From Octopus vulgaris (lineage: Eukaryota), in the NCBI GenBank assembly GCA_951406725.2, contig OX597821.1, positions 68,138,001-68,202,000 of the forward strand: a stretch of DNA of 64,000 nt, given 5' to 3'. A program made the translations under genes and the position numbers. Below are positions 7,467 through 13,076 of the stretch, in pieces. Position 1 is the stretch's first letter. Every line of letters begins with the position of its first letter. The notes under the pieces are model-generated. The model saw only the letters and a list, made by a program, of their open reading frames with translations, did not search any database and was not told the origin of the DNA.

Positions 7467-7564
7467 CATACATACATACATACATACATACATACATACA
7501 TACATACATACATACATACATACATACATACATACTTACGCATATACATACATACACACATAAA

Positions 7565-7598
<34 letters not shown>

Positions 7599-7882
7599 CA
7601 TACATACATACACACATAAATACATACATACATACATATATACATACATACATACATACATACATACATACATACATACATACATACATACATACATACA
7701 TACATACATTCAAATGTACCCTGTTGCCGATGTTGAAATTCCAATGAACGAACCTTGGATCTAGGTTAGAAAACGGCTCTTTCTCTATTGGCAACAAACC
7801 TTTAAATAAAAAGGAATAATGACATACATACATACATACATACATACATACATACATACATACATACATACATACATACATA
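7467..7882. repeat. (CATA)n tracts interrupted by a ~110-bp insert at 7709-7821
   Basis: Direct reading. Confidence 0.95.
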
Positions 7883-8126
7883 GGATAAACTGGGATTTTT
7901 AGAAAGAGAAATCGTCTGGCTAATTTGTACATTACACGTGCAATCTGTGAGTGGAACAGTAAAAATATACAAGACTTTTCTCAAGTTCCAAATAGGAATT
8001 TGTCTGCGTTAACTACATCTCAAAGATGGAGACTTGTATCTTCGTTGGAAATCGATTCCCATGTGAGTGGAAGATTTATAATTAAAAATTAGACGATACA
8101 TACATACATACATACATACATACATA

Positions 8127-11100
8127 AAACTTAGATAAAACTTAGATATGTTTCGACCAGAGATTGGTCTAGGCCATGTCTAACTTAATAGCACCACCTG
8201 ATAGGATTATTCGAATCCTGTTTAAGTCAAGTTCTGTTCAAGTAGTGAGTTCTTGTTGGGTGAGTTGTATCCAGTTTTGTTCAAGTAGTGAGTTCTTGTT
8301 GGGTGAGTTGTATCCAATTATGGGTGGCTTGTCTGGTATTCTTTGAAGGAATCTATCCAGACTGTTTGAAGTTGATGGGATCCTTTTCCTCTTTGATCTC
8401 CCTCGGGACAATGTTAAATAGGGCAGGGCCTGTTGAGGAAAAGAAATTATGTTGCAGTGTACATGTATGTTGTGATCTTGAATTTGGCAGGGGACGTATA
8501 GCCCGTGGTCCAAGTCTCGGATGAACCTTGAAGCTAATGTTTAGGTCGTTTGGGCAAAGTTGGCGGTATATTTTCCACATCGTACAAATGATGTACCGCT
8601 CACGGCGACGCTGGAGGGAGTAAAGTTTCAAGGCTTTAAGGCGATCCCAATAGTCGAGAGCAGCCATGCCTTCAATTTGTTTAGTGAGAGCCCTCTGGGG
8701 TGACTCAATTCTGGAGATGTTTTGTCTTGTGTGAGGAGACCACAGTGGGCAGCAGTATTCAAGGTGTGGCCGTACAAAGGATGAAAAAAGTGGTATGATG
8801 ACACCTTGTTCTCTGGACCGGAAAGTTCTTAAGATCCAGGAACTCATCCTACGAGCTGTATCGACCTTCTTGTTGATGTGTGCACTCCAACTGAGATCGT
8901 CATCAACAATTACACCCAGGTCTCTGATATTGTTAGAGGCTGTGAGCGGTTCCCCTGAAGGAAGAGAGTATGGTTGTTTTAGTGAGGAATTTCTTCCAAA
9001 ATGCATCAGCTCAAATTTTCCCTCATTCAGTTGCATTTTGTTTCTGTCTGCCCATTGACTCACAGCATATAGGTCAGACTGGAGTTGAGTTCGGTCTGCT
9101 TCTTCATTGACGATTTGCTGGAGCTTAGTGTCATCAGCGAATATTTTCACTTTGCAGTGATGTACGACACTGGAAAGGTCGTTTACATAAATTATGAAGA
9201 GTAGCGGACCCAAAACAGTTCCCTGGGGAACACCGCTGGTGACTTTTGCTGGGTTTGAGTGGACTCCATCAACTACAACATGTTGTGTTCTATTCGCTAG
9301 GAAATACTGAATCCAGTGTAGAACTTTTCCACGGATTCCAACATTTGCCAATTTTGAGAGTAGGATGTTATGGTCTACCCTGTCGAACGCTTTACTGAAG
9401 TCAAGGTATATGACGTCAGAGTTCGAACCTGTTCCCAAGGCTTTGAGTACATCTTCAATGTGGTGTAAGAGCTGTGTTAGACAGTCCCTGCCACAGCGAA
9501 AGCCATGCTGATTTGAATTTAGGAGTTTGTGGGTCTCCAGGAAGTCAGCTATCCTTGATCTTAACACTCTTTCAAACACTTTAATGATGTGGGAGGTGAG
9601 TGAGATTGGGCGATAGTTGACTGCGAGGGATCTGTTTCCCTGTTTGAAAACCGGGATGACCGACTGGGATAGAAACTTTTTCGGTATATAACCTGCGTCT
9701 AACGAGTTTCTCCAGAGGTTGGTCAGAGGGACTGCAAGTTGATATCTACATTCCTTCAGGAGACTGGCGGGAAATCTATCAGGGCCTACAGCAGAGTAAT
9801 GTTTGACCTCATTTATTGCTGCTACGATGTCGATGGCAGTGAAGGTTATGTCTGCGATTTTGTGTTGGGAGACAGCTTCGTTCGTTTCCCTCATATCAAT
9901 ATCAGTGGGAACACTGAAGACAGAGCAATATTGTTTCTGCAGTATTTCTGCCATTTCTTTAGCATCGTGTTGGGGAATGCCGTTTTCATCAATCAATGGC
10001 CCAATAGGTGAGACAGTGGTTCTATGCTTATTTGCATAAGAATAGAACACTTTTGGGTTCTGTTTGATGTTTTTGATTACCCATTGTTCCTCCACAGCTC
10101 TTTGATTTTCAATGGAGGTTTTCATGTTAGTCTGCAGATGAAGTTTTTCCAGCTCTAGTCTTTTCATTGTTGTTGAATGTGGGTGTTGCGTGTGGGAATA
10201 TTTTAATTGGTTGATTTTTTTGTTGAGTCTTTTGATGCGCCTGATGAGTGTTTTTTTCTTTTTAGGGAGCCGGTTTCTGTTTGTGTTAGTAGATTTCTTG
10301 GGGGCGTGTTTAGAGCATGTGTCGGTGACAATGGTTTCAAAGTGATGCCACGCGGTCTCAATATGAGGGGAATTGAGAGTAAAAGACCAGTCGATGGAAG
10401 ACAGATCCTTTCTGATTGTTCCCCAGTCCGCTTTGTGGAAATTTATGTTGTCAAATGGGTGCCATGGAGTGGGATTGGCTAGTTTGGTTTTTATACGTCG
10501 GGAATTAAGATTGCAGAGTACCATGTCGTGGTCTGAGAGGAGAGTTTTTTCGACTGAAATGCTGTGAACGTAGCTAGAGTGATTGGTCAGTACCAGATCC
10601 AAGATCGTTTTATTCTGTCTCGTTGGTTCAAGCACTAGCTGAGTCAGGAAATACTCATCCATCAGATTAAAGAGCAGTTCTGCTGCTGCCCTATCTGATG
10701 TAGAGCACTTGCCTAACTTCGGAGTATTTGTGGGCCAGTTCACATGAGGGAGGTTAAAATCACCCATCACTATTATGTTTCCGGAGTGGTACTTCCGAAG
10801 GAAGGACTTGACTTTGCTAAGGCACTCTTCAAAGTACTTTAGAGGTGCCTGGGGAGGCCTGTAAAGACCAACAATGGTTATGTCCTTGGCTTTGTTGTAT
10901 ACTGATACTGATTCACAGTAGCCATTGGAAATTGTGTCCTTGGCATCAAGTGAAAAGGAGTCATGGATAAAGATGGCTGTCCCTCCCTTATTTCGGTCTG
11001 TGCGATCCACACGAACAATGGTGAAATCTTTTATTTTCACCTCTGCGTCCATATGGGTGTTGTTCAGGTGAGTCTCGGTAAGGATAAAGAAAGGGAAGCA

Positions 11101-13009
11101 ATGTGCCATTTCGGCAAGCCAACTCTCTATATATGGGATCTTCCATTTTTGGGCAATAATTGATGGGTTGATGCCACGTACATTTAACAGGAATGTCGAG
11201 GTAAGGGAAGTTGGTAATGGGTGAGTGGTCCTTGTGATTTGCATAGATGGTTGGTGATGGCTCGCTGGATCTCCTGGCTTAGGTCGGCCTTCATATTTTC
11301 CAGGTATGTCAGTAAAAAAGTTACTTGTTTGGTTTGCCACTTGGTCAGAGGATACATATTTCAAGTTGGCGTTATTTGGTGTTTTTTCCTGGTTCTGTCT
11401 ACGTAGTTTGATTGTAGGAGGGGAAACGTGGTTGTATTTTGTTCTTGTTGTTGTCCTAGATTTCCTCTGTTCCTGTTCATATCTATTCTGTGATCGTTTT
11501 GTGCCCTTCAGATGGTGGTTGTTGCATTCTGGGTTCAGGCACATCCTTTGTGAGACAGAAGTTTGGCACAGTTTAGGATGGAATAAGGTGCATCCATTGC
11601 CTCTTATGCATCCGTATTTAGGGTCAGAACCATAGATTCTGTATTTAGGACAGTATTTGGGGTGGAGGTGGGGGCAATTTTTTCCTGTTATACCGTATGG
11701 ACAGGTGCCCATAGCAAGTCTACGACATAAGGTCGGGTGGGGAAAAGCACAGCGTCCATTTTTGTTTGTGCCGCTGGGGCCAAATCTACAAGTGCCTTTA
11801 GAATAGTAACGGCAGGGGGTTTTATTTGGTTGTAGTAGTGGTTTTTCTATTTTGGCAGTAGTAGTAGTGGTGGTGGTGGTGGTGGTGGTGTTAGAAGCAG
11901 CTTGTTGATTTTGTGATGGTGGGTTCTGGCTTGCCAGTATGTGGTCAAATCTGCAGCTGCCTTGAGAGTAGTAGTGGCAGATAGTTTTACGCGGATGTAG
12001 TACTGATTTTCCTATTGTGGCAGTAGTGGGGAGTTTTTGCAGCATTGGAACTTGACTAGTGGTAGTATTAGAGTGTTGTTGTTGTTGTTTTTGTTGCTGT
12101 AGCGAAGGTGAGACTTGACTTGGTTCATCAGGTGCTGTTGTCAATGGAAGTAGGTCAGTTGATTGTTGCTGTTGAAGTGACCACTGACCTGTTGGAATTT
12201 GGTCATTTGTTGTACTGGATTCGTTGGCAAGAATGGCTTTTAGTGTAGCCATGTGCGCGTGAAAAATAGGGAATATCCTAACAATTTCTTTTAATTTATT
12301 TTCTATCTGTTTTACAGATCTGTGAAAGGATTTTTTCGTTAAATCCTCAGTTATTTTGCTATAAACATTAGCTTCGTTGTGATGGATGAACCAAGCATTA
12401 ATCATTGCAGTAATTTCATTTTCAACCCAGCGGCGTTTTTGAAAATTATTGGCCATATTCAGTGGGGTAGTGTTGTGTAATATATATATGTATGTATGTG
12501 TATGTATGTGTACACCAGTTATTGATGGCTTGATGTAAAATAGTGAACACACTGTTGAAAAGATTGTATCGATATACTCGGTAAATAGTGAATACACCGT
12601 TGGAAAGTTTGTGTCGATATACTCGGAAATTCGTGGCTTGTGTGTGTGAGAGTTCAGTGTAATTAGTACAATCTAATTAGTACAATCGGGATGAGCGGTG
12701 TGTTTGATACAGACCAAGAAAAAAGAATTGTACTCACGGGACTAGTTTTAGAACTAGTCTTGGGTTTAGTATTTAGTTTTGGGTTGTTCCTCTTTCTTCA
12801 GGTTGTATAAAGATTTGTATAAATTTATCCTCCGATGGTAGTAAAAGAGTAGTATAGTAGGATTGTAGAGTTCAAAAGTCTTGAGATTAAAGACAAGGAG
12901 AGATTATGTTAGCTTGAGTTGAGTTGAGTTAAATTGAGTTGAAAAATGCTTCTTTGGTTAGTTACTGACGGGAGCTATAAAAAGTACGTCTTGTCACGAC
13001 GACTGCCTG
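8127..13009 (-). mobile_element. Near full-length CR1-group non-LTR retrotransposon inserted in (CATA)n
   Basis: Both flanks are (CATA)n (8096-8126, 13010-13074). The 3' tail is an 11-bp tandem (CTAAGTTTTAT)2 preceded by a stem-loop. About 550 bp of 5' UTR; APE-RT ORF inside. Confidence 0.95.
8353..12456 (-). CDS. Fused ORF1-ORF2 polyprotein: Myb/SANT-like domain, 4 CCCH zinc fingers, AP endonuclease, reverse transcriptase
   Basis: APE motifs LNVRG, LTETHL, GLYRPP, MGDFN, LDLVLTN, SDH. RT motifs YRPISLTS, QHGFR, YLDFSKAFD, GVPQGTVLGP, FADD. CR1-type C-terminus RPHLEYC and SLQRRR. Likely start is ATG 12456 (MANNF). Confidence 0.93.
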   Translation of the reverse strand: MANNFQKRRWVENEITAMINAWFIHHNEANVYSKITEDLTKKSFHRSVKQIENKLKEIVRIFPIFHAHMATLKAILANESSTTNDQIPTGQWSLQQQQSTDLLPLTTAPDEPSQVSPSLQQQKQQQQHSNTTTSQVPMLQKLPTTATIGKSVLHPRKTICHYYSQGSCRFDHILASQNPPSQNQQAASNTTTTTTTTTTTAKIEKPLLQPNKTPCRYYSKGTCRFGPSGTNKNGRCAFPHPTLCRRLAMGTCPYGITGKNCPHLHPKYCPKYRIYGSDPKYGCIRGNGCTLFHPKLCQTSVSQRMCLNPECNNHHLKGTKRSQNRYEQEQRKSRTTTRTKYNHVSPPTIKLRRQNQEKTPNNANLKYVSSDQVANQTSNFFTDIPGKYEGRPKPGDPASHHQPSMQITRTTHPLPTSLTSTFLLNVRGINPSIIAQKWKIPYIESWLAEMAHCFPFFILTETHLNNTHMDAEVKIKDFTIVRVDRTDRNKGGTAIFIHDSFSLDAKDTISNGYCESVSVYNKAKDITIVGLYRPPQAPLKYFEECLSKVKSFLRKYHSGNIIVMGDFNLPHVNWPTNTPKLGKCSTSDRAAAELLFNLMDEYFLTQLVLEPTRQNKTILDLVLTNHSSYVHSISVEKTLLSDHDMVLCNLNSRRIKTKLANPTPWHPFDNINFHKADWGTIRKDLSSIDWSFTLNSPHIETAWHHFETIVTDTCSKHAPKKSTNTNRNRLPKKKKTLIRRIKRLNKKINQLKYSHTQHPHSTTMKRLELEKLHLQTNMKTSIENQRAVEEQWVIKNIKQNPKVFYSYANKHRTTVSPIGPLIDENGIPQHDAKEMAEILQKQYCSVFSVPTDIDMRETNEAVSQHKIADITFTAIDIVAAINEVKHYSAVGPDRFPASLLKECRYQLAVPLTNLWRNSLDAGYIPKKFLSQSVIPVFKQGNRSLAVNYRPISLTSHIIKVFERVLRSRIADFLETHKLLNSNQHGFRCGRDCLTQLLHHIEDVLKALGTGSNSDVIYLDFSKAFDRVDHNILLSKLANVGIRGKVLHWIQYFLANRTQHVVVDGVHSNPAKVTSGVPQGTVLGPLLFIIYVNDLSSVVHHCKVKIFADDTKLQQIVNEEADRTQLQSDLYAVSQWADRNKMQLNEGKFELMHFGRNSSLKQPYSLPSGEPLTASNNIRDLGVIVDDDLSWSAHINKKVDTARRMSSWILRTFRSREQGVIIPLFSSFVRPHLEYCCPLWSPHTRQNISRIESPQRALTKQIEGMAALDYWDRLKALKLYSLQRRRERYIICTMWKIYRQLCPNDLNISFKVHPRLGPRAIRPLPNSRSQHTCTLQHNFFSSTGPALFNIVPREIKEEKDPINFKQSG

Positions 13010-13044
13010 ACATACATACATACATACATACATACATACATACA

Positions 13045-13076
<32 letters not shown>

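Follow-up and report, generated by a model that had tools for sequence, protein, structure and literature searches.

The 64,000-nucleotide (nt) stretch of Octopus vulgaris DNA analysed here (contig OX597821.1, forward-strand positions 68,138,001 to 68,202,000; hereafter the window) carries on its minus strand a full-length copy, about 4.9 kb long, of an APE-type non-LTR (LTR, long terminal repeat) retrotransposon, or long interspersed nuclear element (LINE), which lies at 8127..13009 (ends approximate) between (ATAC)n microsatellites. No LTRs are present, the two ends of the element having only microsatellite in common, and simple repeat marks the 3′ end. Sibling copies are many and dispersed (304-660 contigs per sequencing run), and no second copy was found within the 64-kb window. 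A single open reading frame (ORF) of 1,439 codons (4,320 nt) runs from 12672 to 8353 and hides within it the junction of ORF1 and ORF2. As far as the junction, ORF1 (11320..12456, first ATG at 12456) consists of a Myb/SANT-like N terminus (12435-12274, below the Pfam cut-off), CCCH-type zinc fingers and a low-complexity linker. The finger cluster (11505..11981), the hallmark of this ORF1 family, is recognized by profile search and by its invariant Cys/His columns, the Pfam zf-CCCH match of the window copy scoring 20.0 bits against a cut-off of 20.5. Next comes the APE endonuclease domain (Pfam-matched part 10519..11085; PF14529, E 1.6e-16, and PF03372, E 5.1e-08) and then the reverse transcriptase (RT) domain (8908..9621; PF00078, E 4.3e-31), an order that Pfam also finds in a distant relative, L001. 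Near 8365/8363 the copy has a second frame break (8268..8365), beyond which the conserved ORF2 C terminus goes on in the other frame; four of six homologs gave a second tblastn piece there, and the direction of this break is that of the break at the junction.

At the junction the minus strand reads AAC TTTTTTA CTG, as an earlier, sequence-only reading of this DNA had reported, and the U UUU UUA slippery heptamer occupies 11313..11319. The phase given in that reading also holds, the heptamer being T TTT TTA in the frame of the ORF1 tail, from which a −1 shift enters the RT frame. Two minus-strand frames overlap from this point. The first (11184..11318) encodes FLLTYLENMKADLSQEIQRAITNHLCKSQGPLTHYQLPLPRHSC, a conserved helix that begins at a Phe-Leu (F-L) dipeptide, and its stop (11186-11184) falls on the L-N codons that open the APE domain. 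The second, the ORF2 or −1 frame (11182..11319), is a stop-free linker that continues to the L-L-N motif of APE, and it is on the codons of this motif that the ORF1 stop lies; the sole ATG of the −1 frame between heptamer and APE in the window copy is at 11242..11244. The hydrophobic moments of the two frames have maxima that are barely apart (0.45 vs 0.38) and lie further apart over the first 25 residues (0.32 vs 0.12). Because 19 X XXY YYZ matches occur within the 4,320-nt ORF, the lone heptamer of the window is not above chance and proves nothing by itself; it is raised above chance by its conservation across related loci.

Contigs of sibling copies (not raw reads) from 4 of 24 listed runs, covering three organism codes, were aligned on positions 10950-11750. 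In all four runs two letters are inserted at 11318, at the 5′ edge of the heptamer. An A>G row at the same position, with loose ends bearing two more A, was taken to be that longer form in an ungapped alignment; with this row counted in, the longer form has a share of 0.95, 0.885, 0.96 and 0.97 in the local depth, leaving 3-12% of that depth unaccounted for. Because the siblings have two additional letters at the heptamer, the fusion of the window copy stems from the loss of 2 nt, and the peptide earlier described as lying in a +1 frame is the true ORF1 C-terminal tail, which in the window copy no longer shares the ORF1 frame. The suggestion that the copy had been fused by one extra base was thus right about the fusion and the net frame change and wrong about a 1-nt gain. 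In the sibling form ORF1 would continue directly into the helical peptide, with the phase of the heptamer kept and a −1-frame stop preceding it. The window copy itself is damaged or mis-assembled, as its second frame break indicates. Codon conservation, which the sequence-only reading had proposed to look for in both frames, favours the helix (ORF1) frame: among the 40 sibling variants listed (171 others lie outside the listing; the 11318 row was excluded from this count), five of the six in the overlap are silent in that frame and none of the six is silent in the RT frame.

A metagenome scan for distant relatives gave 13 pattern matches, seven of which were confirmed as loci. Pairwise identity ranges over 43-97% among the six complete ORF2s and is about 36% between these and the ORF2 of the window, and all six complete loci are unfused. 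Each of the seven loci has T TTT TTA at F-L in the −1 phase, and the heptamer is invariant in all eight aligned junctions. In the 22,621 nt of the seven loci TTTTTTA is present seven times, each locus having a single instance and that at the junction; TTT TTA is used by none of the 32 other F-L dipeptides in the ORF2s, and the probability of the exact heptamer, based on codon usage, is 0.002-0.047 per locus. These values indicate that the heptamer is kept at the nucleotide level beyond what the protein would need. In the −1 frame, stops make up 42 of 490 codons upstream and none of 427 in the overlap from the heptamer on, the final stop lying 3-21 codons ahead of the heptamer, whereas the control +1 frame shows no such drop (20 of 490 and 30 of 427, respectively). 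Substitutions among the distant loci favour the ORF1 frame across the helix and their indels are all multiples of three, which together imply that the −1 frame is maintained open as a linker. Viral and prokaryotic collections yielded no relatives, their single match (L008) being unrelated.

A profile search with the CCCH fingers recovered 2,682 protein clusters at E<=0.001, of which the best 150 were examined along with three earlier matches. The longest of these 153 ORF1 matches is no more than 608 amino acids (aa), and the absence of longer, fused homologs at E<=0.001 is a weak line of evidence. One match, P0002, is a close relative, 57% identical over the fingers, that likewise terminates in this tail, with 16 of 23 tail residues identical, and then a stop. 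Among 144 ORF1 proteins, nine with tails shorter than 70 aa having been removed, F-L is present in the tail of 124 (shuffles: mean 34, maximum 50), its median distance to the stop being 78 residues. In only one of these 124, vs 22% in the linker, is F-L preceded by E, Q, K, M or W, whose codons are unable to end in U. When the fused P0145 was also removed, the last residue was C, Y, F or S in 106 of 143 ORF1s (background 18%), which fits an ORF1 stop that coincides with the x-L-N codons of APE, read in the −1 frame, an arrangement that forces those residues. The AlphaFold2 model of P0010 has its tail as a helix at 364-393, with a predicted local distance difference test score (pLDDT) near 88.

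The helix is well placed in 113 tails (30 others were left out), of which 85 have F-L only, 11 have Lys-Asn (K-N) only, 13 have both and four have neither, and the helices that lack F-L mostly have K-N just upstream. Such K-N tails would be consistent with replacement of the heptamer by A AAA AAC, which is among the most shift-prone heptamers (PMC5009743), and the pattern suggests that Phe is not required for the helix.

With the overlap, the site, its phase and its conservation in place, and with the window copy fused by deletion, we consider it likely that programmed −1 ribosomal frameshifting yields a minor ORF1-ORF2 fusion consisting of the fingers and the APE-RT region without the terminal helix. 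Most ribosomes would complete the ORF1 protein (ORF1p), including the helix, and a minority would slip at UUU-UUA to make a product that keeps the fingers, loses the helix and gains APE and RT, the outcome being a high ratio of ORF1p to enzyme. The fused ORF of the window closely resembles the transframe protein predicted in this way. More speculatively, the helix may assemble ORF1p on RNA, and shifting may be stimulated by something other than a fixed 3′ hairpin, for instance by the linear sequence or by a protein, perhaps ORF1p itself, or may reflect basal slipperiness. The sequence-only reading had already proposed that the family expresses ORF1-ORF2 by frameshifting, and the unfused siblings and invariant heptamer support this, frameshifting itself being what we infer from them. 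It had also named the finding that would speak against it, namely fused copies throughout, with neither heptamer nor peptide conserved; this is contradicted by the unfused siblings, the P0002 tail and the heptamer shared by all eight junctions. Its other option, that the ORF is fused by nature and yields the short product through slippage, is unsupported, the siblings being unfused.

Several observations weigh against frameshifting. The case for it is drawn from DNA and protein sequence, and the seven distant loci represent only about four or five lineages, all retrieved with a single finger pattern. The S, D, N, H or P residues ahead of the helix could be explained by helix N-capping. The K-N pattern was recognized post hoc, is found mostly in one 20-tip clade and was seen in protein sequences. 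In addition, of the features of a canonical −1 frameshifting cassette, the junction has an in-phase X XXY YYZ, a stop-free −1 frame and conservation at the nucleotide level, and no conserved stem-loop or pseudoknot was found 5-9 nt downstream. Folding of the downstream RNA, as the sequence-only reading had advised, revealed no significant structure: z values for the window are −0.2 to +1.2, the aligned junctions have no consensus base pairs downstream of the heptamer, no Rfam family matches at the junction, and a composition-aware shuffle singles out L007 only (3/400; window 182/400). Finally, an in-frame ORF2 AUG is present in the window and in L005-L007.

Two further results concern the downstream RNA. 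A conserved 3′ stem was considered and rejected, its enrichment under whole-region shuffles being lost under block shuffles except in L007. In that locus only, a 12-base-pair long-range stem (L007:278-352, +7 to +81 past the heptamer) scores better than block shuffles do (3/400). A crude pseudoknot scan placed L001-L003, a close trio, above shuffles (0-1 of 30), and the other five junctions were not so placed.

The in-frame AUGs bear on the best surviving alternative, that, much as SART1 or L1 does, the family begins ORF2 translation afresh (reinitiation or internal initiation), either close to the ORF1 stop or at an AUG within the overlap, with F-L kept only as the start of the helix. Reinitiation is named as the SART1 and L1 mechanism in passages of two reviews (PMC2881922, PMC3894237), the window has its ORF2-frame ATG at 11244, and in L005-L007 a −1-frame Met adjoins the ORF1 stop, one or two codons before it. 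However, L001-L003, three of the six complete junctions, have no −1-frame AUG before the ORF1 stop, and where UAA-AUG occurs (the window, L001 and L002) the AUG belongs to the ORF1 frame and not to that of ORF2. The SART1-type UAAUG, in which the ORF1 stop overlaps the ORF2 AUG, does not occur in the junction sequences. A start at the ORF1 stop would probably truncate APE motif I, and initiation of this kind leaves unexplained both the fixed T TTT TTA codons and a −1 frame in which, starting at the heptamer, 56-80 codons pass without a stop. We therefore regard reinitiation as improbable. Still less likely is a change of frame at the RNA level, whether by polymerase slippage on the U run or by a splice that joins ORF1 to ORF2: six or seven T in a row do occur in all eight junctions, but the run is short, the A that follows is invariant, and slipped RNAs would return to the genome as one-letter-longer siblings, none of which is among the 12 sibling indel rows listed (six others lie outside the listing; contigs lose rare variants). 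Least likely, and largely refuted, is that the family is natively one fused ORF whose short ORF1p arises by +1/−2 slippage, or that the whole pattern is due to chance: although the window copy is one open frame and two database gene models (P0145, P0168) link fingers to APE, the siblings and all six complete distant loci are unfused, none of the 153 ORF1 matches is longer than the 608 aa given above, and the window copy has its second frame break.

A −1 shift of the type proposed here has precedents, each of which differs in some respect. U_UUU_UUA is the HIV-1 gag-pol frameshift site, as stated in the part of PMC5009743 consulted, and the LINE junction resembles retroviral gag-pol in its heptamer, its X_XXY_YYZ phase, its structural ORF placed first, its polymerase in the −1 frame and the dropping of the first-ORF tail. 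In contrast to retroviruses, the element is non-LTR, has an APE endonuclease and CCCH fingers, lacks protease and integrase matches in Pfam, and has no 3′ stem-loop or pseudoknot that we could find. Also comparable are Dictyostelium TRE5-A and TRE3-A, APE-type non-LTR elements for which a passage of PMC5911963 states that a −1 frameshift is needed for ORF2. These are amoebal and tRNA-gene-targeted and have an ORF2 C-terminal zinc finger, and the passage gives no slippery site, whereas the present family, which occurs in animals, combines a CCCH ORF1 with an invariant heptamer. Pfam finds no C-terminal zinc finger in ORF2 here, the C terminus of the window copy being frame-broken. Drosophila HeT-A is likewise a non-LTR element that needs frameshifting, but according to the same portion of PMC5009743 its shift is within gag only and it has no RT. 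SART1 and L1 face the same problem of making little ORF2p from a two-ORF RNA (passages of PMC3894237 and PMC2881922), but they give separate ORF2p after the ORF1 stop, while here the frames overlap by 45-80 codons, pointing to a fusion. Shifts without 3′ RNA structure, or stimulated in trans by protein, are described for Semliki Forest virus, cardiovirus and arterivirus in that part of PMC5009743; these precedents are viral, and the present data do not show which of them, if any, applies.

We found no description of the heptamer in this LINE family in the literature searched, Repbase Reports and subscription papers being outside its scope. The available portion of PMC4120745, on Jockey-group ORF1 types, has zero occurrences of CCCH or frameshift, and those of PMC10294476, PMC1965478 and PMC5006619 do not describe this site. 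Within these limits, what appears to be new is the invariant heptamer in an animal LINE with a CCCH ORF1, −1 shifts in TRE5-A/TRE3-A and in HeT-A gag being already on record.

Some additional features of the family and of the locus deserve mention. The family may belong to Proto2 or to the CR1/L2 group, which serves as a lead only. Two ctenophores, Mnemiopsis leidyi and Bolinopsis microptera, are the source of the named members, and family clusters in the Atlas are labelled only 'hypothetical protein'. Elsewhere in the family the ORF1 N terminus has a PHD-like finger in some relatives, and P0041 has a weak MBT/chromo-like match there; Myb/SANT-like, PHD-like and MBT/chromo-like modules appear to be swapped among ORF1s. 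P0145 and P0168, eukaryotic gene models in which the fingers are joined directly to APE, may be fused copies or models that bridge the frameshift by a false intron. Where database entries place the ORF2 start depends on the gene caller. P0266 (cluster of P0166), a family ORF2 filed under a gammaproteobacterial metagenome-assembled genome, is probably host contamination. In the window, (ATAC)n flanks the element on both sides (8096-8126 and 13010-13074), with further ATAC arrays at 7500-7882, and microsatellite targeting by the element is possible. The copy contains tandem duplications of 43 nt at the ORF2 end (8230-8316) and 45 nt in the 5′ untranslated region (12538-12630), and a CCCH finger is duplicated in its ORF1 (11775-11862/11940-12027). 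Long open frames on the minus strand at 226-1357 are translations of simple repeats, with Pfam matches to low complexity only.

How LINE ORF2 is translated is called an open question in the cited part of PMC3894237, which lists stop-start coupling, reinitiation and internal ribosome entry sites as options. In the present family a seven-base site does not vary even among elements that share only about 36% identity in ORF2. A broader scheme, which we advance tentatively and think unlikely as a whole, is that a very large animal LINE lineage with a previously undescribed PHD/Myb-CCCH-helix ORF1 has an ancestral, retrovirus-style −1 shift, swapped to A AAA AAC in one clade and working without 3′ structure, possibly with the CCCH fingers as a trans stimulator that ties enzyme output to the level of ORF1p. 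If frameshifting is confirmed, a major animal LINE lineage would make a Gag-Pol-like ORF1-ORF2 fusion, database ORF2 models of this family would start at the wrong place, and natural slippery cassettes that lack an obvious hairpin would be at hand in their thousands, a source from which new frameshift stimulators might be drawn.
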